This document shows, in pieces, positions 1,445 to 62,230 of a DNA stretch of 64,000 nt (its first letter is position 1; every line of letters begins with the position of its first letter). Source of the stretch: an uncultured Planctomycetia bacterium (GTDB taxonomy: Bacteria > Omnitrophota > Gorgyraeia > VGKN01); contig CAZDNS010000001.1 in assembly GCA_964506845.1 (NCBI GenBank), positions 5,618-69,617 of the forward strand. Reading direction: 5' to 3'. Position numbers and translations under genes: made by a program. Under the pieces are notes generated by a model. The model did not search any database. It saw only the letters and a program-made list of their open reading frames with translations, and was not told the origin of the DNA.

Positions 1445-2495
1445 GCAATACGATATTGCGGTTATTCCCGGCGATGGAACCGGACCGGAGGTAATAAGGG
1501 AGGGTATTAAGGTATTGGAGGCGGTAAGCGAAAAAACCGGTTTTAAATATTCGACTCAAACATTCGACTTTGGCGGAGAGAGATATTTAAAGACAGGTGA
1601 GACCCTGCCTGATTCTGCTGTGGAGGAATTAAAAAAATTCTCTGCGATATACTTAGGCGCAATCGGCCACCCTGATGTAAAACCCGGAATTTTAGAAACA
1701 GGGATACTCTTAAAACTTAGGTTTTCCTTAGACCAGTACATAAACCTTCGGCCTGTGAAACTATATAATGCCGAGTTTTGCCCCCTGAAGGATAAAACAC
1801 CGAAGGACATCGATTTTGTGGTGGTGCGCGAAAACTCAGAAGGCCTTTACAAGGGTATGGGCGAGTTTCAGAAAAAGGGAACAAAAGAGGAAACTGCCAT
1901 ACAGATATCTCATAATACCCGGAAGGGTGTTGAGCGCTGTATCCGCTATGCCTTTGAATACTGCAAGAAAAGGAATAAAGATAAAAAACTTACACTTTGC
2001 GGGAAAACCAATGTGTTAACTTATGCCTGGGATTTATGGCAGAGGACATTTAATGAGGTGGCAAAGGAATATCCCGGTATAACCACAGACTATGCCCATG
2101 TGGATGCCACCACAATGTGGTTTGTAAAAAACCCGGAGTGGTTTGACGTTATTGTAACCGATAATATGTTCGGCGATATTATTACCGACCTCGGTGCAAT
2201 GATTCAGGGCGGAATGGGAATTGCCGCAGGCGGAAATATCAATCCCGAAGGCGTGTCAATGTTTGAGCCAATAGGCGGAAGCGCTCCAAAATATACCGGT
2301 AAAAATATCATAAATCCCCTGGCGGCAATCTGCGCGCTGGGTATGCTGTTAGAAAATCTGGGCGAAACAGAGGCTTCTAAATTAGTGGAGAATTCGGTTA
2401 TAAGGATAGTCAGCGAAAAATTAAAATCCCTTGCTGCAGGAAAGATGGGTTACTCAACTTCTGAAGTGGGAGATTTGGTGGTGAAAAACTTATGA
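1434..2495 (+). CDS. leuB: 3-isopropylmalate dehydrogenase
   Basis: 353 aa isocitrate/isopropylmalate dehydrogenase family ([10 protein letters not shown] near N-terminus, NMFGDIITD). leu context. Confidence 0.8.
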
Positions 2496-3637
2496 AAAAA
2501 TCAAAGTATAACGTAGCAGTAGTTGGTGTAGGTGCAGTAGGGATAGAGATGCTCCGCTGTTTAAGACAGCGCAATTTCCCTGTAGGTGAACTCCGCATTT
2601 TTGCCCGCTCAGAACGGATTATTGAGGTGGACGGCGAAAACTACGCGGTTAAAAGCATATCGCCTGACGGATTTAACAACATAGACATAGCGCTATTTGC
2701 CGGAACTGAGGGTGAGAAGGGAGCGGCAGTAACCTATGCTAAAGAAGTGATAAAAAGGGGTGCAGTGGTTATAGACAACGGCGCGGATTTCAGGATGGAC
2801 CCGGATGTGCCTTTAGTTGTACCAGAAGTAAACGCCAAGGATTTGGATCTCATTAGAAATTGGTTACTTGGAAAAAAACACAGGCCAGAAGGCCGTGGTT
2901 TGGCTTCCAATAGCCAAAGCCACAGGCCAGAAGGCCGTGGTTTGGCTTCCAATAGCCAAAGCCATAAGGGCATAATAGCAAATCCAAACTGCTCCACCAT
3001 TCAAATGGTGGTGGCATTATGGCCTATATATAAAAAGGTCGGTATTAAGAGAATAATTGTAACCACCCTGCAGGCGGCCTCCGGCGCAGGAAGGCAGGCA
3101 GTGGAGCAGTTAAGAAGAGAGTTGATGGAGTTAGGTAAAACAGAGTATCAGAGAATCGGGGTATCAGAAAATCAGGAAAGGGCTTTGCCGCAGCAACTTG
3201 CCCTTAACGTCTTTCCGCATATAGGAAGTTTTACTGAATGTAATTATACCAATGAGGAATGGAAACTGGTAAAGGAAACCCATAAGATTATGCACGCTTA
3301 TAAAATCAAAATCTCGGCAACCACTGTAAGGGTGCCTGTAAGAACAGGCCATTCGGAATCAGTCTATATCGAAACTGAAAAACCGATTGAGCCTGAAAAG
3401 GTAAAGCAGGTTCTCTCAAAGGCTTCCGGAATAATCGTGGTTGACGATATAAAGAATAATCTCTATCCGATGCCGAAGGACACAGAGGGAAAAGATGAGG
3501 TTTTTGTGGGAAGGATACGCAAGGACCCCTTCATTAAAAATGGCCTGTGGCTGTGGATAGTGTCGGATAATCTGAGAAAGGGCGCGGCCCTTAATGCGGT
3601 TCAGATTGCGGAATATTTAATCGGCTTAAAGAAATGA
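2492..3637 (+). CDS. asd: aspartate-semialdehyde dehydrogenase carrying a 28-aa in-frame repeat insertion
   Basis: VGVGAVG N-terminal NAD motif and IANPNCSTI active-site region. 381 aa instead of ~340 because of a duplicated 14-aa insert HRPEGRGLASNSQS x2. Confidence 0.85.
   Translation: MKKSKYNVAVVGVGAVGIEMLRCLRQRNFPVGELRIFARSERIIEVDGENYAVKSISPDGFNNIDIALFAGTEGEKGAAVTYAKEVIKRGAVVIDNGADFRMDPDVPLVVPEVNAKDLDLIRNWLLGKKHRPEGRGLASNSQSHRPEGRGLASNSQSHKGIIANPNCSTIQMVVALWPIYKKVGIKRIIVTTLQAASGAGRQAVEQLRRELMELGKTEYQRIGVSENQERALPQQLALNVFPHIGSFTECNYTNEEWKLVKETHKIMHAYKIKISATTVRVPVRTGHSESVYIETEKPIEPEKVKQVLSKASGIIVVDDIKNNLYPMPKDTEGKDEVFVGRIRKDPFIKNGLWLWIVSDNLRKGAALNAVQIAEYLIGLKK
2879..2962 (+). repeat. perfect 42-bp x2 tandem duplication, internally palindromic, in frame inside asd
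   Basis: Unit cacaggccagaaggccgtggtttggcttccaatagccaaagc at 2879-2920 is repeated exactly at 2921-2962. It contains GGCCagaaGGCC and TTGGCT..AGCCAA arms. Confidence 0.9.
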
Positions 3638-5199
3638 GTCCTGATAAAAAAAGACAGAGCTGGGCATCCCGGCTTGGCATAATACTGGCAGTTGCAGGAA
3701 GCGCAGTAGGGCTTGGAAATTTCCTGAGGTTTCCTGTGCAGGCGGCCTCAAACGGCGGCGGCGCCTTTATGATACCCTATTTCATATCCCTGCTTCTGCT
3801 CGGCATACCGCTTATGTGGATAGAATGGACAATAGGCCGTTTTGGAGGAGGTTTTGGCCACGGGACTGCGCCGGGGATATTCCATTCCCTATGGGAGAAA
3901 AACAGGTTCATCAAATATTTCGGAGTAATTGGAATATTCGGGCCATTAGTCATTTTTATATACTATACCTATATAGAATCCTGGACGCTTGGATACAGTT
4001 TTTTTGCGCTTTTGGGGAAATACGAGGGGATAAAGACCCAGGCGGGTATGCAGAGTTTCCTGAGCGCCTATCAGGGCTTGGAGAAAAACCAGTTTTTTAA
4101 CAGTATTCTGCCTGCATATATCTTCTTTTTGATAACCTTTATATCGAATATTGTAGTGGTATATTTTGGCGTATCAGGAGGGACTGAAAGGCTATGTAAA
4201 ATTGCGATGCCTGTCCTGCTAATAGCGGGAATTATTATGGCTATAAGGGTCCTGACCTTGGGTATCCCTGATTTGTCAAGGCCTGACTGGAATTTGGTAA
4301 ACGGCCTGGGGTTTTTATGGAACCCGGATTTTTCGGTCCTAAAAAGCGCAAGAGTATGGCTTGCTGCATCCGGCCAGATATTTTTTACATTGAGTGTGGG
4401 AATAGGCGTGATTTTAACCTATGCCAGTTACTTAAAAAAGGCGGATGATGTGGCGCTCTCGGGGCTGACTGCCGTAAGCACAAATGAATTTGCCGAGGTA
4501 ATCTTGGGAGGAAGCATAGTAATCCCTGCCGCATACGTATTTTTTGGCCCGGTTGAGATAGCAAATATCGCAAAGGGCGGCGCCTTCAACTTAGGTTTTG
4601 TAACGATGCCTTTAGTCTTACAGCAAATAAACTTCAGCGCCTTTTTTGGCTTTGTATGGTTTTTGCTTTTGTTTCTGGCAGGCGTTACCTCCAGCGTCTC
4701 TTTGATGGAACCTGCTATCGCATTTATGGAGGATGAGTTCGATATTGGCAGAAAAAAAGCGGTTATCATATTTGCAGGAATTTCCTTTATCCTGTGCCAG
4801 CCTGCGATATTCCTTTTAAAACACGGGGTGGTAAACGAGCTGGATTTCTGGGGAGGGACATTCTGCCTGGTTCTGTTCGGGACAGTCGAGGTTATATTAT
4901 TTGCCTGGGTATTCGGAATGGAGAATGCCTGGACGGAAATACACCACGGCGCGGATATAAGGATACCGGATATTTATAAATTCATCATAAAATACATAAC
5001 CCCGCTATTTTTATTCCTTATACTCGGATTCTGGTTTATTCAAGAAGGAATTCCCACCATATTTATGAAGAACGTTGCGGCCGCTGATAAACCCTTTGTC
5101 TTAGGAACAAGGATAGGGCTTTTCATTATCCTTTTGATATTTGCAATAATGGTTAAAATCGCCTGGCGTAAAAAGAGAATTAACCCCGTTAGAGAATAA
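3634..5199 (+). CDS. sodium-dependent transporter, neurotransmitter:sodium symporter (SNF) family
   Basis: 521 aa, multi-TM. N-terminal motif RLGIILAVAGSAVGLGNFLRFP is typical of NSS family. Confidence 0.8.
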   Translation: MSPDKKRQSWASRLGIILAVAGSAVGLGNFLRFPVQAASNGGGAFMIPYFISLLLLGIPLMWIEWTIGRFGGGFGHGTAPGIFHSLWEKNRFIKYFGVIGIFGPLVIFIYYTYIESWTLGYSFFALLGKYEGIKTQAGMQSFLSAYQGLEKNQFFNSILPAYIFFLITFISNIVVVYFGVSGGTERLCKIAMPVLLIAGIIMAIRVLTLGIPDLSRPDWNLVNGLGFLWNPDFSVLKSARVWLAASGQIFFTLSVGIGVILTYASYLKKADDVALSGLTAVSTNEFAEVILGGSIVIPAAYVFFGPVEIANIAKGGAFNLGFVTMPLVLQQINFSAFFGFVWFLLLFLAGVTSSVSLMEPAIAFMEDEFDIGRKKAVIIFAGISFILCQPAIFLLKHGVVNELDFWGGTFCLVLFGTVEVILFAWVFGMENAWTEIHHGADIRIPDIYKFIIKYITPLFLFLILGFWFIQEGIPTIFMKNVAAADKPFVLGTRIGLFIILLIFAIMVKIAWRKKRINPVRE

Positions 5200-5335
5200 A
5201 GTTCTTTAACCCCGTTAGAAAAGAATTTTGTAATTGGGCGAGTGGTGCGCAATGACGATGATTTTAAAACTCATTATAAGTAATCTACGCATAACGACTA
5301 AAAGTCAAAGGTTTTCTCTAACGGGGTAAAACCCC
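5182..5335. repeat. MITE-like inverted-repeat element, copy 1 (AACCCCGTTAGAGAA ... TTCTCTAACGGGGT)
   Basis: Left arm at 5182-5196 also supplies the last codons (INPVRE*) of the transporter. Partial second left arm at 5208-5225. Right arm at 5314-5327. Confidence 0.6.
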
Positions 5336-5368
5336 AGCAAAAGCTAACCTCTAGCCTTCCATCATACA

Positions 5369-6118
5369 ATGCGGAATATCAAACTTATTATTGAATACGA
5401 CGGAACTGATTTTTGCGGCTGGCAGGTCCAGACCAGAAATAAGGATAAGGAGTCTATTCAGAGCGTAATACAGGATGCTCTAAAAATCATCTTAAAAGAA
5501 AGTGTCAGATTAACAGGCTCTGGCAGGACCGACAGCGGCGTCCACGCAAAAGGACAGGCGGCAAATTTCAAGACAAAATCCTGCCTGCCGTTAAGAAAAC
5601 TGCATAAATCCCTTAACGGCATACTGCCCGGGCAAATAAGGATATTGAAAGTAGAAAATGTACCGCTTAATTTTAATTCAAGATTCGACGCAAGCTCAAA
5701 AACATACAGGTATACAATTTTAAACCGGAGGGTGTCATCGCCTTTTTGTGAGAGGTTTTCTTATTTTGTCCCACAGGCGCTAAATCTGAATGCTATGAAA
5801 AAAACCTCCGGATTTTTTATAGGAAACAGAAATTTTAAGGCATTCCACACCAGAGAAAAAACAAAAAGATATTCTTCCGTAAGAAGAATAGATAGGCTCG
5901 CGGTAACGAAAAATGGTGATTTTGTTTACATCGACATCAAGGCAAGCGGTTTTCTCCATAATATGGCAAGGCGCATTGCGGGCGCGCTTATACAGGTGGG
6001 CTCAGGAAAGATTTCGCCTGAAGCAATCAAAAAATCGCTTACTAAAGGGTGCGATTTACCCTTAAAATACAATGCGCCGAGTAAAGGATTATGTCTTATA
6101 AGGGTCAAGTATGCTTAA
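5369..6118 (+). CDS. truA: tRNA pseudouridine(38-40) synthase
   Basis: 249 aa. IEYDGTDFCGWQVQ and GRTDSGVHA catalytic-Asp motif. Confidence 0.85.
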   Translation: MRNIKLIIEYDGTDFCGWQVQTRNKDKESIQSVIQDALKIILKESVRLTGSGRTDSGVHAKGQAANFKTKSCLPLRKLHKSLNGILPGQIRILKVENVPLNFNSRFDASSKTYRYTILNRRVSSPFCERFSYFVPQALNLNAMKKTSGFFIGNRNFKAFHTREKTKRYSSVRRIDRLAVTKNGDFVYIDIKASGFLHNMARRIAGALIQVGSGKISPEAIKKSLTKGCDLPLKYNAPSKGLCLIRVKYA

Positions 6119-6198
6119 AATTTTGTCCTTGACACCAAAGAATCTATATGATAGGTTTAATAAATTAATTTATACAACCTCTTAAAAAGGAGAAAATC

Positions 6199-6912
6199 AT
6201 GGATGCAGAAACCAAGCCAGAACAGGAAATAAAGCCTCAACAGGTAGCATGGGAGGATAGAAAGAATACTGGAGTTTTAGGTGGCTGGATAACCACATGG
6301 AAAGAGGTAGTATTTAGCCCGGCTGCATTTTTCAACAGGGTAAGCCCTCAGGGCAAGATTACTGACGCTCTTACCTTCGGGATAATACCGGTATCCATAT
6401 CCATCATAGTTTCTGCTGTAATAGCAATTCTGTATCAGGTTATAGCCAAGACTCCGCCTGTAGGGATGACAAGTCAGCAGGTAATACTAATTAATGCAAT
6501 ACTTATTGTTACATCCCCTCTTCTTGCCACAATAGGCCTGTTTATAGGAAGCGCCATTTACCATTTGTTTGTCCTTTTGTGCGGCGGCAGAAAGGGCTTC
6601 CGCGCCACCTTCAGGACAATGGGCTATACCAATGCCATTGCATTATTCAGCCCTATTCCGATAGCAGGGCCATTGTTTGTGGGGATATATTCTATTGTTC
6701 TGCTTACCAAAGGCTTTAAGCGGGTCCACGCTATAAGCACTGCAAGAGCAGTATGGGCGGTCCTTATACCTGTTATTCTTGGTATTCTGCTTTTTGTAAT
6801 TGCGGCTGTATTATTAGGCCTATTTTTAACGCTTACTCCGGGAGCTGCCGGCACAATAGCTCCGCCTGCTGGCACTGGCACAGGACAGGTAACTCCGCCA
6901 CCGACACAATAA
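6199..6912 (+). CDS. Yip1-like multi-pass membrane protein with Pro/Thr/Gly-rich C-terminal tail
   Basis: 237 aa with ~5 predicted TM helices after a soluble N-terminus. Assignment to Yip1/DUF1282 is by general architecture only. Confidence 0.35.
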   Translation: MDAETKPEQEIKPQQVAWEDRKNTGVLGGWITTWKEVVFSPAAFFNRVSPQGKITDALTFGIIPVSISIIVSAVIAILYQVIAKTPPVGMTSQQVILINAILIVTSPLLATIGLFIGSAIYHLFVLLCGGRKGFRATFRTMGYTNAIALFSPIPIAGPLFVGIYSIVLLTKGFKRVHAISTARAVWAVLIPVILGILLFVIAAVLLGLFLTLTPGAAGTIAPPAGTGTGQVTPPPTQ

Positions 6913-6916
6913 GATA

Positions 6917-7351
6917 ATGAGGACATTTGTAGCAAAACCCAAGGATATAAATCGGAAATGGTTTTTAGTTGACGCTAACGGCATAGTGCTTGGCAGGCTT
7001 GCCGTCAATGTCGCAAAAATCCTATCCGGAAAGACAAAAGAGGAATTTACCCCTCATGTGGATAGCGGCGATGGCGTCATTGTAATAAATGCAAATAAGA
7101 TAAAGGTAACAGGGAAAAAAAACCAGGATAAGATTTATACCAGATATTCGGGGTATCCTTCAGGGTTAAAGAAATTTACCCTTGAAGAACTGCTGAAGAA
7201 TAAACCTGAAGAGGTTATTGGCCGGGCAGTCAAAGGGATGCTTCCGCATAACAAATTAGGAAACCATATGCTTAAGAGGTTAAGGGTGTATGCAGATAGC
7301 AACTTCAAACAAAGCGTCCAAAACCCGATAAGGTTAGATATAAAGGAATGA
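6917..7351 (+). CDS. rplM: 50S ribosomal protein L13
   Basis: 144 aa, N-terminus MRTFVAKPKDINRKWFLVDA matches L13. Confidence 0.9.
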   Translation: MRTFVAKPKDINRKWFLVDANGIVLGRLAVNVAKILSGKTKEEFTPHVDSGDGVIVINANKIKVTGKKNQDKIYTRYSGYPSGLKKFTLEELLKNKPEEVIGRAVKGMLPHNKLGNHMLKRLRVYADSNFKQSVQNPIRLDIKE

Positions 7352-7749
7352 AAATGGGAGAAAACAGGCTTACAACAACAGGCAGAAGAAAAGAATCAAT
7401 CGCAAGGATACAATTAATCCCCTCTGATAAACCAGGCGTCATCGTAAACAACAGACAACTTGATAAGTATTTTGCCCGGGAAGACCTCCGGGTCATAGTC
7501 AAACAGCCTCTTGTGCTTACCAATACAACGGATAAGCTGGCTATTATAGCCAATGTGGCAGGAGGAGGAGAAAGGGGCCAGGCAGAGGCAATAAGGCACG
7601 GCATTAGCAGGGCGCTGGTGTTGCTCAACCAGACATATAAGTCCATCCTAAAGCAGTATAAACTCCTTACAAGAGACCCCAGGATGAGGGAAAGAAAAAA
7701 ATTCGGACAGGAGGGTGCAAGGAAGAGATTCCAGTTCTCTAAACGCTAA
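7348..7749 (+). CDS. rpsI: 30S ribosomal protein S9
   Basis: 133 aa, C-terminus KKFGQEGARKRFQFSKR typical of S9. Overlaps rplM by 4 bp. Confidence 0.9.
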   Translation: MKMGENRLTTTGRRKESIARIQLIPSDKPGVIVNNRQLDKYFAREDLRVIVKQPLVLTNTTDKLAIIANVAGGGERGQAEAIRHGISRALVLLNQTYKSILKQYKLLTRDPRMRERKKFGQEGARKRFQFSKR

Positions 7750-7759
7750 TTAACATATC

Positions 7760-7816
7760 AGACCTATTTTGTCTTTGTATCGAGAAAATCCTTGACGAAA
7801 TAGGTCTTTTTATTTT
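7760..7816 (+). terminator. rho-independent terminator after rpsI
   Basis: Stem AGACCTATTTTGTC / GACGAAATAGGTCT followed by TTTTTATTTT. Confidence 0.6.
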
Positions 7817-7857
7817 AAAATTAGGCTTTACAATATATTAGACCATCCTCTAAAGGT

Positions 7858-7950
7858 GTTAGTCCCTTCCTTTAAGAGGTATCAGGAAGGACTACCCTGC
7901 TGGGTTAGACCCTTCCTTTAAGGTATAGGAAGGTCTATCCCGCTGGATTA
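7858..7950. repeat. two tandem ~45-bp hairpin units
   Basis: gttagtcccttcctttaagaggtatcaggaaggactaccctgctgg, then gttagacccttcctttaaggtataggaaggtctatcccgctgg. Confidence 0.5.
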
Positions 7951-8051
7951 GAACAAGGAAATGATGCTATAACAGAAACAGATCCCTCGCTTATTCACCC
8001 TGAAAATCTCGAAGATATTTTCAGGGTAAGCTCGGGATTAATTCCGACATA

Positions 8052-8075
8052 TCCTTGACGCTTTGCGTCAAGGGT
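8052..8075. promoter_or_regulatory. palindrome CCTTGACGCtttGCGTCAAGG upstream of argC, possible operator
   Basis: Perfect 9-bp arms about 20 bp upstream of the argC RBS. Same CCTTGAC..GTCAAGG architecture as the palindromes at 29891, 35951 and 38024. Confidence 0.35.
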
Positions 8076-8096
8076 GTCGTCATTAAGGAGAATAAA

Positions 8097-9122
8097 TTGA
8101 TTAAATGTGCGGTTGTGGGCGCAACAGGCTATGCGGGAGAAGTTCTATTAGAACTTTTATTAAAACACCCTAAGGTAAAACTGACCAGCCTTTATGCCAA
8201 GGTAGATTCTGCTCAACCAATATATAATTTTTTCCCCAAGTTTTATGGACGGCTTAATCTATTATGTAAGCCTTTGGAAATAAAAGAGTTAAATAAAAAC
8301 TCTGATTTTATCTTTCTGGCTTTACCCCATAAGGTGTCAATGGAGATTGTTCCGCATATATTACAAAAGGGGAAACGGATAATAGACTTAAGCGCTGACT
8401 ACAGGCTCACGGATTTAGCGATTTATAAAAAATATTATGGGGTAGCTCATCAGGATAATGGAAACATTAAAAAGGCAGTTTATGGTATTCCGGAACTGTA
8501 TAGAAAGAAAATAAAAACCGCTACACTAATAGCAAATCCGGGGTGTTATCCTACAGCCGCAATTTTAGGACTTGCGCCGTTATTTGCTAAAAAGAACCTG
8601 ATAGATATTAACTCCGTCATAATAGACGCAAAATCCGGCTTTACCGGCGCAGGCAGAAATCCAATTGCTCATTTTATATTCTCCGAGGTAAACGAGGCTA
8701 TTAAACCGTATAAGGTTAATGTCCATCAGCATTCTCCTGAAATAGAGCAACAACTCGGCCTTATCGCAGGTGAAAAAATAAGGGTAACATTTGTTCCGCA
8801 CCTTATTCCTATTGACAGGGGAATAATCAGCACGATCTATATAAGGTTAAAGAAGTTAGCAGGCATAGAAGAATTGTTTAGACTATATGAAAATTTCTAC
8901 AAGGGTGAAAAATTTGTAAGAATACTTCAAAGCGGTAAATTCCCTAATTCAAAGGATGTATTAGGAACCAATTTCTGCGACATTGCGCTAAGCCTGGATA
9001 TAGAAAAAAAACAGCTAATAGTAATAAGCGCTATTGATAACCTTATGAAAGGCGCAGCAGGACAGGCCCTTCAGAATATGAATATAATGTGCGGTTTTGA
9101 CGAAACCATTGCTCTAAAGTAA
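8097..9122 (+). CDS. argC: N-acetyl-gamma-glutamyl-phosphate reductase
   Basis: AVVGATGYAGEVL N-terminus. Likely TTG start at 8097 after AAGGAG. The track ORF begins at 8055. Confidence 0.85.
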   Translation: MIKCAVVGATGYAGEVLLELLLKHPKVKLTSLYAKVDSAQPIYNFFPKFYGRLNLLCKPLEIKELNKNSDFIFLALPHKVSMEIVPHILQKGKRIIDLSADYRLTDLAIYKKYYGVAHQDNGNIKKAVYGIPELYRKKIKTATLIANPGCYPTAAILGLAPLFAKKNLIDINSVIIDAKSGFTGAGRNPIAHFIFSEVNEAIKPYKVNVHQHSPEIEQQLGLIAGEKIRVTFVPHLIPIDRGIISTIYIRLKKLAGIEELFRLYENFYKGEKFVRILQSGKFPNSKDVLGTNFCDIALSLDIEKKQLIVISAIDNLMKGAAGQALQNMNIMCGFDETIALK

Positions 9123-9262
9123 ACCCCGTTAGAGAACTTTGTTTTCTAACGGTATTGTGTTGATGATGGCTTTCCTGTCTACCGACAGGTAGAAAACCAC
9201 CATCGAACTTATAAGGTGAAAGCAGTTGGTTAAGTCAGTGGTTTTCTCTAACGGGGTAAAAA
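9122..9262. repeat. MITE-like inverted-repeat element, copy 2
   Basis: AACCCCGTTAGAGAA at 9122-9136 and TTCTCTAACGGGGT at 9244-9257. Internal palindrome CCTGTCTACCGACAGGTAG. Lies between argC and argJ. Confidence 0.6.
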
Positions 9263-9270
9263 ACTTACGA

Positions 9271-10473
9271 ATGAGATTATGTGATGGCGGTATTTGCGCG
9301 CCAAGGGGATTTCTGGCTTGCGGGGTATATTCGGGGATAAAGAATAAAGGGCTTGACCTTGCCTTAATCTATACAAAGTCTTGGGCAAAAACCTTTGTCC
9401 TGTTTTCCGAAAATCAGATACAGGCTGCGCCAAACCTGATTACCAGAAAGAGAATTTCAAGAAATAAATCTGCCTGCGCAGTTCTGATAAACAGCGGAAA
9501 TGCAAATTGCCTTACCGGAAAAAGGGGGTTGCTTGATGCAGAGGAAATCACTGCCTCTCTGGCTAAAGCCCTGGGGATAAACAAAGAGCTGGTAATCTGC
9601 GCCTCTACCGGAATAATCGGAAGAAGGCTTCCTGTTGAAAAAATAAAAAGGGCTATTCCTAAATTAGTTGACAGTTTAAGCGCAAATGGAAGCAATCTTG
9701 CTGCAAGGGCAATTATGACCACAGATATAGCCAGCAAGGAAATAGCCGTAATTTTTGAAATAGGCGGTATTTCGGTAAAGATAGGGGCTATTGCAAAGGG
9801 AGCAGGTATGATTTCGCCTAACTTAGCTACAATGCTCTGCTTTATCTCAACGGATGCAAATATAACGTATAATGCCCTTAAAAAGGCGCTTAAAGAAGCA
9901 GTAGGGTCTTCATTTAACAGAATAACAATTGACGGCCAGATGAGCACAAACGATATGGTTACAATAACAGCAAATGGCATAGCAGGAAATCCTGTTATAA
10001 AATCTGATACAAGGGATTTTAAAATATTCTGCTCGGCACTAAGTTTTGTCTGTGAGCGCCTTGCGAAGAGTATTGTTAAGGACGCTGAGGGCGCTACCAA
10101 GTTTATAGAGATATCTGTAAAAAATGCGCTTACAAAACAAGAAGCTTTTAATATCGCAAGGGCTATAGCAAATTCGCCGCTGGTTAAGACTGCCTTTTAC
10201 GGAGAGGATCCGAATTTCGGGAGGATACTTGCAGCAGCAGGCGCTGCTTCAAAGAGAATAAATTTAGAAAGATTAAAACTTTTTATACAGGGCGTGCCTG
10301 TGTTTAAGAACGGGGCTATCTCTAACTTTAATTTTAATAAACTCAGGCAGAAACTAAAAAAAGAAAATATAAACGTAACACTGGATCTGGAAACAGGAAA
10401 AGAAACCTTCAGGCTCTGGACCTCGGACCTGACAGAGGAATATGTGAGGATAAACTCGGCTTATTCAACCTGA
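9271..10473 (+). CDS. argJ: bifunctional ornithine acetyltransferase / N-acetylglutamate synthase
   Basis: ATML autocatalytic cleavage motif (PNLATMLCFISTDA). Start moved to ATG 9271 (MRLCDGG...) so the CDS does not cover the repeat. Confidence 0.85.
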   Translation: MRLCDGGICAPRGFLACGVYSGIKNKGLDLALIYTKSWAKTFVLFSENQIQAAPNLITRKRISRNKSACAVLINSGNANCLTGKRGLLDAEEITASLAKALGINKELVICASTGIIGRRLPVEKIKRAIPKLVDSLSANGSNLAARAIMTTDIASKEIAVIFEIGGISVKIGAIAKGAGMISPNLATMLCFISTDANITYNALKKALKEAVGSSFNRITIDGQMSTNDMVTITANGIAGNPVIKSDTRDFKIFCSALSFVCERLAKSIVKDAEGATKFIEISVKNALTKQEAFNIARAIANSPLVKTAFYGEDPNFGRILAAAGAASKRINLERLKLFIQGVPVFKNGAISNFNFNKLRQKLKKENINVTLDLETGKETFRLWTSDLTEEYVRINSAYST

Positions 10474-14351: not shown

Positions 14352-16570
14352 AATGGCTTTTTTTTATTTCCATTTTTTTAGTTTTTGTTTCTTATGGACA
14401 TAAAAACTCTCTTGCGCAAAATAATGGCCAGGTATCAAAAATAGAAGTAGATGGAAACGTAAACATCGAGAAAGAGGAAGTAGTGAAAACGCTAAAAACG
14501 TATATCGGCGAAGAGATTGACCGCAAAAAACTTCAGAAAGGAATAGCTTCGCTTTATGAACTCGGATTCTTTGAAGATGTTAAAATGAGAGCGGTTGAAA
14601 CTGACGAGGGCATAGCCATCATTACTACTGTCCAGGAAAAACCCGAGCTTAAGAACCTGCGTTTCAGGGGGAATAAATTTGTTTCTCCCCGGCTTATTCA
14701 GAGGGTTCTTATGCTTCAACCTCAGGAGAGGAAGTTTGTTGACCGTAAGCTCTTGGATAACTGCACCGATAGGATACTTAGGCTTTACAGAGACTCGGGA
14801 TATTATTTTGCGCGGGCATATCCCAGGGCGGAAATAGACGAAAAGACTAATGAGGCGTCTGTTACATATATGATCGAAGAGGGTAAACGGATAAAGGTAA
14901 AACGGATAATGGTAGCGGGAAATAAGCGCTTCGCAAGCGGGGAAATTCTTAAATCGATGTCTACCAAAGCCGGCGGCTTTTTTTCTAATGATATATTTTC
15001 CGATGAAGAGCTATCGGCGGATATAAAGAAAATCAGCTCTTTATACCATTCTGACGGATACATAAAGGCAAAGGTTTCGCACAGCCTGTTCTTCGATGAA
15101 AAAAATGAGCATGTTGCGATTCTTATAGTAATTGACGAGGGTATCCGCTATAGCGTGGGTAAAATCTCTGCAAGGGGTAATACCGCTTTAGAGGGGGCAA
15201 AATTTGAAGAGTTGTTTCTGCTAAAAGAGGGGGAGGTTTTTAACCACGATAAACTACTCAAAGGTATAAACAACCTGAATTCCTTTTATTCCAGAAACGG
15301 CTTTCTACTTTCCCGCATTGAATATGCTTTAACTTACCACGATAATGAGCTTAAGGCGGATGTGGAGGTAAAGATAATTGAAAACAATCCCTATACCATA
15401 AACAGGATAATCGTAAAGGGAAACCAAAAGACAAAGGAGCGGATAATAAAGAGGTTTTTGCTTGTCAGAGAGCAGGAAATCTTTGACGGCTATAAGATAT
15501 TCCTTACCCAGAGGCGGTTACAGGAATTAGGTTATTTTAAAAAGGTATCCATTTTAACGCAACAAACCAAATTTCCCGATAAAAGAGACCTTTTAATTGA
15601 CTTGGAGGAGGGCGGCACAAATATGTTTGAGGCAGGGCTTAAATACAGCACTGCCTACGACCTGGGATTTTATGCCAGATTCGATGAAAAAAATCTATTT
15701 GGAAGGGCTCAGAGATTAACCCTTAAAAGCCAAGTCGGAGGAAAGAAAGAGAACGTAACCTTAAGTTTTATTGAGCCTTATTTATTCGAAAGGGATTTAA
15801 GGCTAAAAACCGACCTCTATGGAACCGAGTTAAATATTCCGAGAAGATACTTTAAGGAGAGAAGAGCAGGCGGAGACATTATTTTTACAAAACCGTTGTT
15901 TGGATACACATTTGGCAATCTATCCTACAGATTCGAGGAGGTAAAGGTATTTGATGTAGGGACTGAGGTAAGTGACTATATATTGCCCGGAAAGACAAAT
16001 CTTGCAAGTGTAACAGGTGCCTTGGTAAGGGATACGCGGGATAGTTATTTTTATCCCTTGAGGGGCTCACTTAATAGCGTAGACTTTGAAACCTCAGGAG
16101 ATTTCTTAGGCAGCGATTATAATTTTATTAAATCTGCAGGTGAATCAAATTATTACTTTAATTTGTTAGGCCAGACTGTATTTCTGGTTCGCCTAAGGCT
16201 AGGAATAGTCAGCGGATTCAATGAAAAAAAAGTGCCCCTCTTTGAGAGGTTCTATCTGGGTGGCGCAAACACTATCAGGGGATACGAGGAGGGTGAAATT
16301 GCGCCACGCTTTGGCGGAAAGGCAATGGGTATTGTGAATTTGGAATACAGAATACCGCTTACAAAGAATAAGACGTTTATAAACAGCCTTTTCTACGATG
16401 CGGGTAATTCCTGGGAGGCTATCAGAGACCTTGACATCGGAGACCTAAAGCAGGGATTGGGAACTGCTTTAACATATAATTCCAGATTTGGAAGAGTAGG
16501 TTTGACTTATGGATATGGCATAGATAAACACAAGGATGAAATATACGTAAATATCGGAAATAACTTTTAA
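14348..16570 (+). CDS. bamA: outer membrane protein assembly factor BamA (Omp85 family)
   Basis: 740 aa. Signal peptide, repeated POTRA-like modules, C-terminal beta-barrel ending in aromatic-rich strands. Sits directly after surA-like. Confidence 0.75.
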   Translation: MKWLFFISIFLVFVSYGHKNSLAQNNGQVSKIEVDGNVNIEKEEVVKTLKTYIGEEIDRKKLQKGIASLYELGFFEDVKMRAVETDEGIAIITTVQEKPELKNLRFRGNKFVSPRLIQRVLMLQPQERKFVDRKLLDNCTDRILRLYRDSGYYFARAYPRAEIDEKTNEASVTYMIEEGKRIKVKRIMVAGNKRFASGEILKSMSTKAGGFFSNDIFSDEELSADIKKISSLYHSDGYIKAKVSHSLFFDEKNEHVAILIVIDEGIRYSVGKISARGNTALEGAKFEELFLLKEGEVFNHDKLLKGINNLNSFYSRNGFLLSRIEYALTYHDNELKADVEVKIIENNPYTINRIIVKGNQKTKERIIKRFLLVREQEIFDGYKIFLTQRRLQELGYFKKVSILTQQTKFPDKRDLLIDLEEGGTNMFEAGLKYSTAYDLGFYARFDEKNLFGRAQRLTLKSQVGGKKENVTLSFIEPYLFERDLRLKTDLYGTELNIPRRYFKERRAGGDIIFTKPLFGYTFGNLSYRFEEVKVFDVGTEVSDYILPGKTNLASVTGALVRDTRDSYFYPLRGSLNSVDFETSGDFLGSDYNFIKSAGESNYYFNLLGQTVFLVRLRLGIVSGFNEKKVPLFERFYLGGANTIRGYEEGEIAPRFGGKAMGIVNLEYRIPLTKNKTFINSLFYDAGNSWEAIRDLDIGDLKQGLGTALTYNSRFGRVGLTYGYGIDKHKDEIYVNIGNNF

Positions 16571-16574
16571 AAGA

Positions 16575-16706
16575 GGTAACCGCAAAAGCGCAGAATAACC
16601 ATCAAAACGCAAAATATCCTATAGAAGCGCAAAGAAAGACTTCCGCGTTTCAGTGTTTACTAATTTAGCGATTTAATGGTTACAAATTTTGCGTTTCAGC
16701 GGTTGT
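16575..16706 (+). promoter_or_regulatory. conserved upstream cassette, copy A (GGTAACCGCAAAAGCGC ... AGCGGTTACAAATTTTG ... CGTTTCAGCGGTTG)
   Basis: Member of a 4-copy family (46234, 48355, 61877). Ends 18 bp before the ATG at 16724. Confidence 0.6.
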
Positions 16707-16723
16707 AAAGTAGGAGTGTGTAA

Positions 16724-37956: not shown

Positions 37957-38098
37957 AGACACAACTTATGCCTGCCTGTCGGCAGACAGGGAATGCAATG
38001 ACATAAGCTGTGTGTCTGAATTTACCCTTGACATCTTCGATGTCAAGGGTCCAACTCGCACAGCAACTTATGTTCACTTTGTTCCATAAGTTGTGTGC
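37957..38098. promoter_or_regulatory. nested inverted-repeat cassette, copy 3, carrying an inserted GC palindrome
   Basis: CCCTTGACATCTTCGATGTCAAGGG at 38024-38048. CCTGCCTGTCGGCAGACAGG at 37971-37990. Outer arms GAAGACACAACTTATG / CATAAGTTGTGTGCT. Confidence 0.5.
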
Positions 38099-38115: not shown

Positions 38116-38388
38116 ATGTCACAACATTCGAGCCTAAGATCAAGAGGAGTGAGTAAAAGACATAGAAGTGTCTTTAAAAGATTCGAAAGAATTAAAATAC
38201 TTAAGAAAGAGGGTAAGTGGACACAGAACGATTCGATATTCGGCCTTCCTAAGGTTAAATCCATTAAAATCAAGGTCAAGAAAGAAAAAGCACTGGAAGA
38301 AAAAACCGCCGAAGCAACAGTCCAGCCAACCCCGGCAGTTAGTGCTCCACCTGAAACCAAAAAAAAGGAAGAGAAGCCAAAGAAATGA
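38116..38388 (+). CDS. small Lys/Arg-rich basic protein
   Basis: Start MSQHSSLRSRG after TAGGAGG. ~90 aa, basic N-terminus and KKKEEKPKK tail. Confidence 0.4.
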   Translation: MSQHSSLRSRGVSKRHRSVFKRFERIKILKKEGKWTQNDSIFGLPKVKSIKIKVKKEKALEEKTAEATVQPTPAVSAPPETKKKEEKPKK

Positions 38389-39539
38389 GGAGTTTATTTC
38401 TAGTATTTACTATATTCTTTTTCTTTTCCATGGCAGCAAGCCCCGTTAGAGAACAAAATTCTCTAACTGCCTGGGCTGATAATGATTTTAAATCACCATT
38501 GGCTTTAAACAGTAACGACCCCAGATTAAAGTCGGCGGCTTTCTCTAACGGGGTAAACGGACAGGAGAACAAGCCTTTTATTGGAGAGATAACTTCTGAC
38601 AGGGTAAATGTAAGGGCAGGCCCGGATTTAAACTTCGAGATAATATATAGCCTCGATAAAGGCCAGAAGATAGAGGTTAAAGAGGAACAGTTCGGCTGGT
38701 ACAGGATACAGCTGCCAGAAGAGTGTGTTCTTTATATAAATAAGGAATTCGTAAGCAAGGATGCGGATAATTACCTGGCAAAAGCGGAAGGGGTAAACGT
38801 AAGGTCGGGGGCAGGTTTTGAATTTAACGTAGTGGGGCAATTATCAAAGGGAAGCAAAATCGAGGTTATCAGGGAGGAGCTTAAGTGGTACGGTATAAAA
38901 GCGACGCCCGATTGCTCCGGATGGGTCAATTCAAAATATATAAGATTTTATGAAACTATGGAGAAGTATAAGCTCGACCTGGCGAGGAAAGAGGCGGCAG
39001 GGAAAAATTATTCTAAGATACTATCAAATTATACCCGCGAGTTAAAACAAAATATATCCGATATGAAACTTGAGCCAATCCGTGCGGATTTTGAAAGATT
39101 TCTTGTTGATTATCCCGATACGCCCCAGGCAAAACTAGCCCAAGAAAAAATAGACGAAATAAATTTAAAATTACTCGAAATAGAACATCTAAAGACGAGG
39201 GAGAGTTTAAAAGAAGCCCGGCAGGAATTTAGAGAGGCGAAGAGACTAATAGATGAAAAAATATCTCTCATAGATAATATAGCCCAAATAAAAACTAACG
39301 TAAGAAAGGACCCGCCAGCCTACGTTGGGACAATAGAGGATGTCGGTATTTTATGGAACAGGCCTGCCAGGCATAAACTCTGCAATGAGAATAAAGAAAT
39401 CTTATGTTATCTTGCATCAGAAAAAATAGATTTAAACCGATTCATTTACAGAAAGGTAAGACTATGGGGAAAGGCTGAACCCCTACCCAACTCAGAGAAG
39501 AAATTGCTAAGGGTAAGTTATCTGGAAGAAATGGATTAA
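38385..39539 (+). CDS. secreted protein with two bacterial SH3 domains and a coiled-coil C-terminal region
   Basis: Signal peptide. SH3b-like VNVRAGPDLNFEII..WYRI and VNVRSGAGFEF..WYGI. MITE-like element copy 3 lies in frame after the signal peptide. Confidence 0.55.
   Translation: MRSLFLVFTIFFFFSMAASPVREQNSLTAWADNDFKSPLALNSNDPRLKSAAFSNGVNGQENKPFIGEITSDRVNVRAGPDLNFEIIYSLDKGQKIEVKEEQFGWYRIQLPEECVLYINKEFVSKDADNYLAKAEGVNVRSGAGFEFNVVGQLSKGSKIEVIREELKWYGIKATPDCSGWVNSKYIRFYETMEKYKLDLARKEAAGKNYSKILSNYTRELKQNISDMKLEPIRADFERFLVDYPDTPQAKLAQEKIDEINLKLLEIEHLKTRESLKEARQEFREAKRLIDEKISLIDNIAQIKTNVRKDPPAYVGTIEDVGILWNRPARHKLCNENKEILCYLASEKIDLNRFIYRKVRLWGKAEPLPNSEKKLLRVSYLEEMD
38439..38558. repeat. MITE-like inverted-repeat element, copy 3 (inside the SH3-protein reading frame)
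   Basis: AGCCCCGTTAGAGAA at 38439-38453 plus adjacent hairpin partner TTCTCTAAC. Right arm TTCTCTAACGGGGT at 38541-38554. Confidence 0.55.
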
Positions 39540-46150: not shown

Positions 46151-46233
46151 ACCCACAGAGCCGTATAAAGTTAAGATAATATAAAAGACTCTTGACATAT
46201 AAACGCGCAAATATTAAAATAAAGCAAAAAAAG

Positions 46234-46402
46234 GGTAACCGCAAAAGCGCAGAATAACCACCAAAGCGCAAAATATCCCTGCCTGTCGCCTGCCTGACGG
46301 TAGTCAGGGCAGGCGCAAAGAAAGACTTCTGCGTTTCGGCGTTTACTAATTTCGCTATTTAGCGGTTACAAATTTTGCGTTTCAGCGGTTGCAAAAAAGG
46401 AG
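46234..46402 (+). promoter_or_regulatory. conserved upstream cassette, copy B (with palindromic insert CCTGCCTGACGGTAGTCAGGGCAGG)
   Basis: Collinear with copies A, C and D. Followed by hairpin GTGCT..AGCAC, then GAAGGAGG and the ATG at 46440. Confidence 0.6.
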
Positions 46403-46439
46403 TGCTTTGACTACGCTCAGCACTTCGAAGGAGGTAAAA

Positions 46440-48354: not shown

Positions 48355-48503
48355 ATCCCCTCCTTTTTTGCAACCGCTGAAACGCCTGTCTGCCGACAGG
48401 CAGACAAAATTTGTAACCGCTAAATAGCAAAATTAGTAAACGCCAAAACGCAGAAGTCTTTCTTTACGCCTCTGCCGATATTTTGCGCTTTGGCGGTTAC
48501 CCC
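48355..48503 (-). promoter_or_regulatory. conserved upstream cassette, copy C (contains GTCTGCCTGTCGGCAGACAGG insert)
   Basis: Reverse complement aligns with copies A, B and D. 20-nt palindrome at 48385-48406. Confidence 0.6.
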
Positions 48504-48694
48504 TTTTGTTTGGTTAATTACATACAAAAAAGGCTGCGAGACTTTGGGTTCGCTCAAACTTGTGACAGCCGGGTCACCTTTTTAAATTTCCTTAGCGCTC
48601 AATAGTCTCACAGCCAGCTAAACTCTACCATATCGAACAGATTTTGTCAATAGCAGTATTTAAAATTTAAGAAACGAGAAATATTTATAATTAA

Positions 48695-60034: not shown

Positions 60035-61873
60035 TCAAAATCTTTTCTTTATCCCTGAGTAAAGCGAAAATGCCGCTGTAGCGTATCCCCTTACCTCCTC
60101 GTACTTTTTGTTCAGAAGATTTTCTATCGTGCAAAAAATATCAAGGTCGTCTGATAATTTATATGTAGCGGACAAGTCTACGCGCGCATACGGCTTCATC
60201 TTAAAGGTATTTGCCGTATTATCCCAGCGATGACCAAAATAATTTACGAGGAGTGTGGGCTTTAAATTTTTAATAAAATCCAGGTTTACATTAAGGCTTA
60301 ATTTATCCTTCGGCCTTCTTGCCAGCTCCTTGCCTGTAGAATTATCACGCGTATTCATCCTTGTGTATGAACAGTCTAAACTTAATTTTTCAAAAGGCCT
60401 AAAAGAGGTATTTAGCTCAACCCCTGCGGTCTTTGCCTTTCCTAGATTTTTATATCTGTTCGTATCAAAATCATAATCCACCATATTTTTAAACCTGTTA
60501 TTAAAATAGCCTGCTCCTAAAATAAGGTTCTTGGTAAAACCCTGTTCTATGGCAATATCATAATTTGTGCTTTCATCAGGAGACAAATTTGCATTACCAT
60601 AGGTAGGGTCATAGAGCTGGAAAAGGGAGGGCGCCTTAAAACCTGTTCCAAGGTTTGCCTTAAAGCGGGTATCTGTTTTTTGGATATGATAGGCTGAGGA
60701 TACCTTGTAGTTTGTATCCGAACCAAAGCTTGAGTGCTCATCAACCCTTATGCCCGGAGTAATAAATAATTTCTCCCATAACTTAAGCTGGTTCTGCAGG
60801 TAAAAGGCTTTATTGTTGATATGCCTCCTGTCCACATCTCTATGCGCTCCTCTTTCTTCCTCATATTCAAAGCCACCTGTTAAGGTATCTATTTCTGCGA
60901 TAAAAAGGTTGTGCTGCCAATCTATTTTTTTGTTATTTCCATAATACCAGTCATCATATGCGTCGGTTAAGTCTTTTGAATCAGGGTCATCCCTGTATCG
61001 TCTTTTAACATCAAGCCAGCTAAGGCCTAAGCTTTGCTCCCAAAAATCCTTAATTCTGTCGGTAAACTGGGTTTTAAGGGCAAGGGAATTGTTATTAACG
61101 GTATAATTCGGGTCATCATCATAGGCGGCATCGTCTATATCGGTATCGGAATTCGTATATCGCAAGATGAAATCCAGTTTTTTTTCTTCTGATATATTAA
61201 AACCCATGCGGCTTAAAAGCGTGGAATTTTCGTAACTGTCCTCTTCCTGTCCGTCTTTTGCCTTTGAGAATCCATCGGAATCAACCCTCGAAATAGAAAG
61301 CGAATGGTTTATCTTAGAGTTACCACCGCTTACCGAGAGATACTCCCTAAAGGTCTTGTAGGAACCTGCCTCGCTTGAAATTTCAAATTTAGTCTTGCCT
61401 GCCCCTTTCTTTGTTACTATATTAACCACGCCACCTATGGCATCTGAGCCATAAAGAGTAGATTGGGGCCCCCTTAAAATCTCTATCCTTTCTATGTTGT
61501 CAGGGGTTAAGTAGGCAAAATCAAAAGCCCTTCCTGCTGACATAGGGTCATTCATCTCTATGCCGTCTATCATAACCAGGGTATATTCGGGTTTAGCGCC
61601 CCTTAAAAAAACAGAGGTTTGGCCGCCCAAACCGCCTGTCTGAACAACGTTAAGCGAAGGAACGGTCCTTAATATATCCAAAACCGTGCTCTTAGCGCTT
61701 CTTTTTATATCCTCAACTCCTATTACGCTGACAGATGTGCCTAATCCTTCAATAGCCTCCTCTGTCCTGGTTGCACTCACCACAATCCTCTCAAGCCTCA
61801 CCTCTTCTGCTAAAACAATACCAGCCAAAAATAACACCATAGCCATAACATAAGTCTTTATCAAATACCGCAT
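60035..61873 (-). CDS. TonB-dependent outer-membrane receptor (BtuB-like, cobalamin-riboswitch controlled)
   Basis: Signal peptide, TonB box/plug (ERIVVSATRTEE), 22-strand barrel ending in terminal F. Start at ATG 61873 after GGAGGA. Confidence 0.8.
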   Translation of the reverse strand: MRYLIKTYVMAMVLFLAGIVLAEEVRLERIVVSATRTEEAIEGLGTSVSVIGVEDIKRSAKSTVLDILRTVPSLNVVQTGGLGGQTSVFLRGAKPEYTLVMIDGIEMNDPMSAGRAFDFAYLTPDNIERIEILRGPQSTLYGSDAIGGVVNIVTKKGAGKTKFEISSEAGSYKTFREYLSVSGGNSKINHSLSISRVDSDGFSKAKDGQEEDSYENSTLLSRMGFNISEEKKLDFILRYTNSDTDIDDAAYDDDPNYTVNNNSLALKTQFTDRIKDFWEQSLGLSWLDVKRRYRDDPDSKDLTDAYDDWYYGNNKKIDWQHNLFIAEIDTLTGGFEYEEERGAHRDVDRRHINNKAFYLQNQLKLWEKLFITPGIRVDEHSSFGSDTNYKVSSAYHIQKTDTRFKANLGTGFKAPSLFQLYDPTYGNANLSPDESTNYDIAIEQGFTKNLILGAGYFNNRFKNMVDYDFDTNRYKNLGKAKTAGVELNTSFRPFEKLSLDCSYTRMNTRDNSTGKELARRPKDKLSLNVNLDFIKNLKPTLLVNYFGHRWDNTANTFKMKPYARVDLSATYKLSDDLDIFCTIENLLNKKYEEVRGYATAAFSLYSGIKKRF

Positions 61874-61876
61874 TAT

Positions 61877-62041
61877 ACTATCCTCCTTTTTTGGAACCGC
61901 TGAAACGCCTGTCTGCCGACAGGCAGACAAAATTTGTAACCGCTAAAACGCAAAAGTTTCTTTGCGTCTTTGCGCCTACCTACCCTGACTACCGTTAGGC
62001 AGGCGGCGGGTAGGGATATTTTGCGCTTTTGCGGTTACCCC
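61877..62041 (-). promoter_or_regulatory. conserved upstream cassette, copy D, between the riboswitch and the receptor gene
   Basis: Aligns with copies A-C. Contains GTCTGCCTGTCGGCAGACAGG (61908-61929) and a CCTACCCGCCGCCTGCCTAACGGTAGTCAGGGTAGG insert. Confidence 0.6.
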
Positions 62042-62230
62042 TTTTTAATAAAAAACCCGACCTTCGTTGGCCGGGTGGTTTGTTAATATTTCCTTCCGTC
62101 GAAGGCATTCTCCTGAATGAGTAATGGACCAGACTCATCCCGAAAGTTCGGAATATTACTGTTGCGGGGCAGTGCCCGGAATTCCCTCTAAATTAGGTCA
62201 CCGGGACTTCCTTTACTCACTCGGTAAAAA
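62042..62230 (-). ncRNA. cobalamin (AdoCbl) riboswitch with intrinsic-terminator expression platform
   Basis: Minus strand: AAAGGAAGUCCCGGUGA, GGGAAUUCCGGGCACUGCCCCGCAACAGUAA, B12-box-like GAGUCUGGUCC. Terminator CCCGGCCaacgaaGGUCGGG then UUUUUU. Confidence 0.7.

Follow-up and report, generated by a model that had tools for sequence, protein, structure and literature searches.

The Rickettsia palindromic elements (RPEs; Ogata et al., 2000), about 100-150 bp long, lie in frame in unrelated metabolic and housekeeping genes, as summarised in a review (PMC10969869). Here we report a palindromic unit of 42 nt that forms a perfect head-to-tail pair within asd, the gene for aspartate-semialdehyde dehydrogenase (Asd), in a 64-kb stretch of contig CAZDNS010000001.1 from an uncultured member of the Omnitrophota (the whole stretch is hereafter called the window). 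RPEs are its closest known analogue in behavior. Both are short dispersed palindromes, many of them in frame, whose peptide is tolerated by the protein fold and which hold no transposase within the element. However, RPEs are found in Rickettsia (Alphaproteobacteria) and are not reported as tandem or nested arrays with a 42-nt period, whereas the unit measures 42 nt, is predicted to fold into two coaxially stacking hairpins, has an Omnitrophota host and commonly forms arrays of two to four. Size, architecture and host phylum set it apart from RPE-1 to RPE-10, with which it was compared by description only. Like an RPE in function, it is a palindrome that has entered many unrelated housekeeping genes in frame, the corresponding sites being empty in relatives.

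Repetitive extragenic palindromic (REP) sequences and REPINs are moved by REP-associated tyrosine transposases (RAYTs) and include GTAG- and CGTC-tagged families (PMC3733652). The unit resembles the 20-40 nt class of these imperfect, GC-rich palindromes in its many copies, its arrays and its compensatory stem changes. REPs are extragenic by definition and carry a GTAG or CGTC tag; by contrast, about half of the listed copies of the unit are intragenic (68 of 133), 6 of 120 variants contain GTAG and none contains CGTC, and no RAYT was found within 2 kb of units. The label “REP-like” given by a first-pass annotation of this DNA is thus apt in the broad sense of a dispersed palindromic family but not in the sense of “extragenic”, as about half of the listed copies are in frame in housekeeping genes.

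[quoted passage not shown] Like them, the unit is non-autonomous and dispersed, has short direct repeats at its flanks and sometimes lies within a gene while keeping an open frame. Unlike them, it lacks terminal inverted repeats: its two ends are complementary at a mean of 0.84 of 10 bases, and the hairpins are internal. It also falls below the usual range of 50-800 bp, and its direct repeat, AYAR, resembles its own end rather than a random target. Palindromic amphipathic repeat coding elements (PARCELs) encode a 25-residue amphipathic motif in long tracts within ORFs (open reading frames) of no known function, often those of membrane proteins (PMC2996958). They share with the unit intragenic tandem repeats, dyad-symmetric DNA and apparent movement within genomes, but the unit encodes 14 hydrophilic residues and is mostly a single insert in conserved enzymes. 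In elements derived from IS200/IS605, subterminal hairpins are recognised by TnpA, and insertion takes place 3' of a fixed short target with no duplication. The two hairpins of the unit and a recurrent (C)AY just 5' of it would be compatible with such a system; no TnpA was identified near units.

A perfect pair of units in asd

The asd gene is an intact ORF whose start overlaps the stop of leuB (1434-2495). Its product matches the NCBIfam models PRK14874 (395.9 bits, cut-off 223; E = 1.4e-118) and TIGR01296 asd_B (373 bits, cut-off 324.2; E = 1.3e-111) as well as Asd chains in the PDB (E = 7e-76). The NCBIfam match is broken into two stretches around the insert and the PDB alignments break exactly there, with query residues 119 to 157 falling between residues 117 and 118 of 2gyy. 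The features of the locus are as follows.

2492-3637, + strand: asd, intact ORF of 381 aa (NCBIfam PRK14874 and asd_B, PDB chains, invariant residues)
2843-2872, + strand: remnant of an older in-frame REP-like hairpin of the CCCCGTTAGA...TCTAACGGGG family, left arm and spacer, encoding LDLIRNWLLG (intact inserts in relatives)
2880-2921, + strand: unit copy 1, 42 nt, register ACAGG...AAAGCC (covariance model 70.8 bits, E = 1.4e-17; fold; stem covariation)
2880-2886 and 2891-2896, + strand: stems of predicted hairpin 1 of copy 1, loop AGAA at 2887-2890 (fold)
2897-2905 and 2912-2921, + strand: stems of predicted hairpin 2 of copy 1, loop TCCAAT at 2906-2911 (fold)
2922-2963, + strand: unit copy 2, probable recent duplicate, 100% identical to copy 1 (repeat search, covariance model, single copy in locus L001)
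2964-2968, + strand: ATAAG, a terminal direct repeat that matches bases one to five of the unit, AYARG (family profile; empty-site comparison); it also supplies the His-Lys codons CAT AAG of the empty site

Tandem Repeats Finder reports the pair at 2879-2964 (period 42, 2.0 copies, 100% matches, score 172), and a pattern search with the 42-mer returned exactly two copies, 2879-2920 and 2921-2962, with 0 mismatches. The perfect in-frame tandem duplication described by the first-pass annotation is thus present in an intact ORF, and its translation, HRPEGRGLASNSQS twice followed by HKGIIANPNCSTI, is correct. The search for further copies that it had proposed was run on the window and found the asd pair alone: no third copy with up to 3 mismatches exists in the 64 kb, and 0 of 100 shuffles matched. 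The covariance model of the family, applied to the 64 kb with filters off, scored both copies at 70.8 bits each, with the next best hit at 11 bits. The unit had also been called GC-rich, which holds only mildly (57%, against about 45% in the surrounding asd; the window has 40%).

The hairpin arms noted earlier are real. The unit contains the hairpins GGCC-AGAA-GGCC and GGTTTGGCT-TCCAAT-AGCCAAAGCC; for single-stranded DNA the calculated folding energy is -11.2 kcal/mol for one unit (z = -3.4) and -25.8 kcal/mol for the dimer (z = -6.1). The hairpins directly adjoin each other, with base 1 paired to 17 and base 42 to 18, and the unit is therefore predicted to fold as one continuous, dumbbell-like helix with a nick where the flanking DNA enters. 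At the junction of the tandem dimer, the predicted fold rearranges into a single stem of about 15 bp.

The asd site in relatives and the enzyme

We compared this site across 84 asd loci with DNA. The named Asd homologues belong to Candidatus Omnitrophota, where the protein varies from 338 to 403 aa, mostly at the insert site. The empty site reads PEVNAKDVKKHKGIIANPNC in 62 of the 84 loci; in L003, whose protein is 90% identical in the alignment, it is AAA CAT AAG GGC. One filled state is a 54-nt insert (AAC CCC GTT AGA AAT TGG ... ATT TCT AAC GGG GTA AAA) that forms a perfect hairpin with arms CCCCGTTAGAAAT / ATTTCTAACGGGG and is intact in L009, L013, L019, L022 and L033; L007 has this insert plus one 42-nt unit after KKH. 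In the other state, that of the window, the left hairpin arm stands alone (..IRNWLL..) and is followed by KKH and one to four units. The window's remnant retains ATT AGA AAT TGG TTA of the 54-nt insert. The first-pass account of the insert was therefore incomplete, in that it missed the upstream LDLIRNWLLG, which is what is left of an earlier palindromic element.

Unit number is polymorphic across Omnitrophota asd, with 0, 1, 2, 3 and 4 units all found. The closest relative with DNA, L001 (protein 86% identical over its full length, 89% in the alignment), has a single unit whose 42 nt are the same as both window copies, while the flanking codons differ synonymously. Separate expansions are seen in L085 (two identical YGQS-type copies) and L002 (four), and the close relatives L003 and P0012 have no unit in asd. 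Because L001 holds one identical copy and many Omnitrophota share the site, the unit is, judging from these alignments, old in asd, and the second copy alone is recent. A recent insertion, as first suggested, does not agree with the one to four units found at the same site in many Omnitrophota asd and the one in L001; the recency applies to the duplication. Likewise, the 28 residues said to have been added reduce to 14 gained relative to L001, the nearest unit-bearing relative. A neighbor-joining tree of 120 Asd sequences requires at least 20 gains or losses of the insert; it is star-like, carries no support values and does not separate loss from transfer.

The insert is conserved as DNA and not just as peptide. 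Among 14 species with the canonical unit, the codons of conserved residues are identical in 92% of pairwise comparisons within the unit, against 46% in the upstream and 42% in the downstream block of asd. When the window is aligned with species at about 70% Asd protein identity, sliding-window identity peaks at 93-100% over the insert, including the hairpin-less remnant of the DLDLIRNWLL subtype, and returns to 60-80% within about 10 codons. A conserved protein loop with diverged DNA, which had been named as the observation that would tell against a recent element, is ruled out by this difference (92% codon identity vs about 44% in the flanks): relatives do share the loop, but its nucleotide sequence is almost identical. 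This conservation could reflect the conversion or transfer of short tracts, concerted evolution together with copies elsewhere, or a sequence-specific function.

All residues invariant across the 120 Omnitrophota Asd sequences are present in the window's protein, including C167 of NPNC and H287, which we take to be the catalytic residues, and the IANPNCSTI motif is in place. Modeling had been proposed as a way to ask whether the insert is a surface loop. An AlphaFold model from 120 sequences (mean pLDDT 74, pTM 0.72; an earlier 35-sequence model with a mean pLDDT of 57 was set aside) predicts a confident core and a disordered loop: residues 117-126, the older remnant, form a short helix, and the two units (residues 126-157) lack secondary structure, with pLDDT <50. 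We infer from the model that the insert is a tolerated surface loop. Asd with the duplicated unit is most likely still functional, and the enzymes of relatives presumably function with 0 to 4 units.

A dispersed family of palindromic units

Public metagenome contigs were scanned with hairpin 2 alone (GGTTTGGCYTCCNNTRGCCAAA, 22 nt), which gave at least 133 matches in at least 120 stretches. About 129 of the 133 listed matches are outside asd, and 123 flanks are unique. Conservation extends past the 22 nt searched to the whole 42 nt plus a 4-5-nt AYAR(G) repeat and drops sharply outside. At least 54 distinct long ORFs carry the unit; the 68 listed copies inside long ORFs include 44 in the asd frame. 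Hosts confirmed by Pfam are ArsA ATPase, glycogen synthase, class II ribonucleotide reductase (RNR), a UvrD-like helicase, EtfA with a ferredoxin domain (1-3 units), ketol-acid reductoisomerase (KARI), OTCase, pyruvate kinase and RnfD; GltB, PurL, a CusA-type pump, GspE and EtfB were judged by eye. Many other copies are intergenic, often immediately 5' of a ribosome-binding site. Overall, units are read in five frames, lie on either strand and occur between genes as well.

Two hosts illustrate the range. The UvrD-like helicase gene of L140 (Ga0315282_10038162, ORF around 3103) has eight units, some in each orientation, whose translations are PEGSGLASYSQSH, AIGSRTTAPWL and WLGLSETQPPPSGL peptides. 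KARI forms a series of 330 aa with an empty site (PNLKKGKALCF), 344 aa with one unit (PNLKKGKPEGSGLASNSQSHKALCF) and 358 aa with two, and all named KARI matches are from Omnitrophota or Omnitrophica. In 50 of the 120 metagenome stretches, ORFs have a median identity of 68% to known Omnitrophota loci. The hairpin-2 pattern had 0 matches in viral contigs, and BLAST of the repeat region had 0 in plasmids and phages; a phage or plasmid origin was rejected on these searches. A four-unit concatemer peptide searched against a set of 5.8 billion proteins yielded little (62 candidates and 11 weak matches, including an Omnitrophica-named DUF1844 protein and a PGK fragment). This evidence places the unit in a dispersed family that, within the sampling made, occurs in Candidatus Omnitrophota. 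The family has apparently not been described before; our literature search found no paper that ties Omnitrophota or Omnitrophica to MITE or REP elements.

The stems of the family covary. The following counts come from 114 distinct units or family members and are inflated by shared descent among subfamilies.

Hairpin 1, pair 2-16: UA 54, CG 50
Hairpin 1, pair 6-13: CG 88, UA 24
Hairpin 1, pair 7-12: CG 91, UA 23
Hairpin 2, closing (top) pair 26-33: UA 65, CG 23

The observed covariation score is reached by 0 of 500 shuffles, and sliding the partner columns lowers pairing from 94% to between 17% and 54%. The stems exist in many distinct versions (GCC/GGC, GTT/AAC, GCT/AGC, GTC/GAC, GGTC/GACC and GGCT/AGCC), which indicates repeated compensatory change. 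Together, covarying stems and conserved loops point to a specific recognition machinery. In the family profile AYAR(G) stands at positions 1-4 and again at 43-46. This 3-5-nt direct repeat flanks most copies and could equally be part of the element itself; its 5' and 3' versions correlate within copies (T-T 41 and C-C 22, vs C-T 18 and T-C 7). Of 120 variants, 119 are free of stops in the asd frame; in each of four other frames 80-87% are open, and one frame is closed.

Single sites number 114, double 30, triple 4 and quadruple 1. Among 14 distinct neighboring pairs, six are identical, four are one base apart, and three have 6-7 differences with compensatory changes. Units are also nested in the hairpin-2 loop of another unit at GAT|AGCC, in 14 different contexts, and once the inner 42 nt are taken out, a canonical unit is left. 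Such nested and ectopic copies speak for the insertion of discrete units and not for local slippage alone.

Other palindromic elements occur in the same genomes. The arms of the 54-nt asd insert match a second dispersed family (arms CCCCGTTAGARA / TYTCTAACGGGG, usually followed by TAAA), to which this ancestral insert, by its sequence, belongs. The family takes the form of 41-51-nt hairpins and of 111-176-nt versions, its stems covary, and it is also found in L009, L013, L019, L033, L063, L090, L105, L116, L130, L132, L158 and L194. Its copies in the window, recognized by inverted-repeat arms, are as follows.

5185-5325: second-family copy; gives the final codons (INPVRE*) of an SNF-family transporter ORF, 3634-5199
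9125-9255: second-family copy; overlaps the stop of argC
38442-38552: second-family copy; falls in the 5' part of ORF 38385-39539

A third small palindrome (CCTGYCTGCCGACAGGCAGRCA type) occurs in the window at 9163-9186, 37961-37990, 48385-48414 and 61908-61937. Its relatives encode LPAGRQ-like inserts nested within 42-nt units in three Asd proteins (P0032, P0067 and P0079), and a SLHAGRQG insert in KARI P0200 is related to it. Further in-frame mini-inserts occur at two other Asd sites (L085, 1039-2196; L084, 8001-9200; L086, 10001-11182): site 2 is SWPVIQLYGQTGKRANGQ, with GGGCAAAC four times between ACCGTT and AACGGT, and site 3 is YCAGARTGSSAVAG, with palindromic DNA ACCGGC..GCCGG. In L084 a composite of the unit is nested in the site-2 mini-insert, at a second site in asd. 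Palindromic mini-elements are thus nested inside one another, as read from these alignments.

Two further repeats were observed in the window. At 7858-7952, within 1.1 kb of DNA that has no long ORF (6912-8055), two units of about 43-46 nt with 84% identity stand in tandem, each with the internal hairpin GTCCCTTCC...GGAAGGAC; they have no Rfam match. A leader of about 190 nt is present in four copies that are 85-96% identical, at 16558-16718 (+), 46217-46404 (+), 48359-48507 (-) and 61882-62045 (-), and is composed of tandem sub-repeats of 19 nt (AAAAGCGCAAAATAACCAT) and 23 nt (GCGTTTCAGYGGTTACAAATTT). The genes downstream are unrelated: position 16724 has a CBM-like protein, 46389 a small ORF and 60035-61930 a TonB-dependent receptor. 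The four copies may represent a common regulatory region.

Origin of the second copy

The explanation that we regard as well supported and probable is that the pair is a two-copy head-to-tail array of the 42-nt palindromic unit, acquired long ago, recently duplicated locally and carried as a tolerated loop. The asd gene would have taken up one unit long ago, beside the remnant of the earlier REP-like hairpin, in the loop that separates the NAD-binding domain from the catalytic Cys. With its 14 codons and no stop in five of six frames, the unit can persist within coding sequence as a hydrophilic loop (..KPEGxGLASxSQSH..). In the lineage of this genome the resident unit would then have been duplicated, adding 14 residues to a disordered loop with presumably neutral effect on the enzyme. 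The second copy most likely arose by local replication slippage or unequal exchange, which the hairpins and the short terminal direct repeat may have helped. Local duplication is favored because the copies are identical to each other and to that of L001, and because most neighbors in the family are identical or nearly so. For this family, a step from one copy to two, as in asd, is nothing out of the ordinary; the interest of the result lies in the family as such.

Several observations weigh against this explanation. No unit beyond the asd pair was found in the 64-kb window by fuzzy matching with up to 12 substitutions, half-sites, six-frame peptide motifs, nhmmer or the covariance model, and in 241 kb of asd-anchored unit-bearing loci there is a single extra site; on these counts mobility within this particular genome is putative. 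With an estimated density of about one additional site per 60 kb in unit-bearing contigs, the lack of a further unit in the window is unremarkable. No recurrent transposase-like or other mobilizing gene was found within 2 kb of units, where ORF clustering gave orthologous housekeeping contexts. The insert is near-identical between distant species even in its loops and in the hairpin-less remnant, for which selection on hairpins alone is insufficient. The taxonomy of most of the metagenome contigs is indirect, the covariation counts carry the inflation given above, and the copy number in asd is that of the assembled sequence.

Transposases were sought with phmmer, using IS200, IS608 and RAYT query sequences. 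The one match, a 125-aa weakly RAYT-like fragment in L033 (2045-2420; MPNHIHGII, HUH-like), was set aside, with E = 1e-4 against a RAYT query and no Pfam match at 1e-5; it is flanked by a different repeat (AGTTAGGGGACGTTCCCAAA) and not by the 42-nt unit.

The copy-number change could also have come about without slippage, if the second copy were a new, transposition-like insertion directly 3' of the first. The first unit ends in ..GCCAY, the same bases that precede most units, and units do insert beside and into each other, because some neighbors differ by 6-7 bases with compensatory stem changes (L104, L195 and L206), nested units occur in 14 distinct hairpin-2 loop contexts, and a composite sits at the second asd site of L084. 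We nevertheless consider such an insertion unlikely for this pair: both copies in asd match one another, and the lone copy in the sister lineage, without a difference, the 64-kb window offers no donor copy, and 10 of 14 neighboring pairs are identical or one base apart, as local duplication predicts. That an assembler expanded a single copy is extremely improbable. The contig is metagenome-assembled and perfect short tandem repeats can be mis-assembled, but 84 bp would probably be spanned by typical short reads (150 nt or so), the reading frame is kept, and perfect or near-perfect arrays recur in many independent assemblies and genes (four units in L002; also L085, L095, L100, L140 and L162).

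Two other explanations do without a mobile element. The conservation of the peptide over many Asd proteins, with copy number varying as in protein tandem repeats, would suit a lineage-specific loop selected for its peptide, yet we give this almost no credence, as it is already contradicted by the recurrence of the same 42 nt, in five frames and on either strand, in at least 50 unrelated genes as well as between genes, by codon identity of 0.92 in the unit vs 0.42-0.46 in the rest of asd, and by the covarying stems. Alternatively, the hairpins might act in cis in the asd mRNA or DNA, for instance in pausing, stability or regulation, as a functional element whose dosage was doubled. The extreme nucleotide conservation of the whole insert between distant species, loops included, and its position at a domain boundary would fit, but we think this very unlikely, because the unit occurs in either orientation in many unrelated genes and at intergenic sites and is wholly missing from asd of the close relatives L003 and P0012. 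Rfam gave nothing relevant (E <= 1 on 2400-9400; gathering threshold on the whole window), nor did a tRNA scan, and no terminator-like site was found in asd, which led us to reject a terminator or promoter role there.

As to how units reach new sites, a more speculative proposal, which we hold to be doubtful, is that they form an ultra-small mobile class of “nicked dumbbell” single-stranded DNA, moved in trans by an enzyme or via small circles. Its two coaxial hairpins would join the ends of the unit, and rolling-circle copying of small circles would yield tandem arrays. Ongoing homing-like conversion of empty alleles would keep the nucleotides conserved between species. As a stop-free module of 14 codons the unit would then be reshaping surface loops in much of the core proteome of Omnitrophota, together with at least two other nesting palindromic families.

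The unit may lie behind annotation and alignment artefacts in Omnitrophota proteomes, and it could act as a lineage marker for the phylum. The quantised 14-residue steps in Asd, KARI, EtfA and others offer a natural experiment on the tolerance and recruitment of inserted loops. If confirmed, the family would be the second large-scale case, after Rickettsia, of palindromes colonizing essential genes in frame, here in an uncultivated phylum and with an element of only 14 codons.

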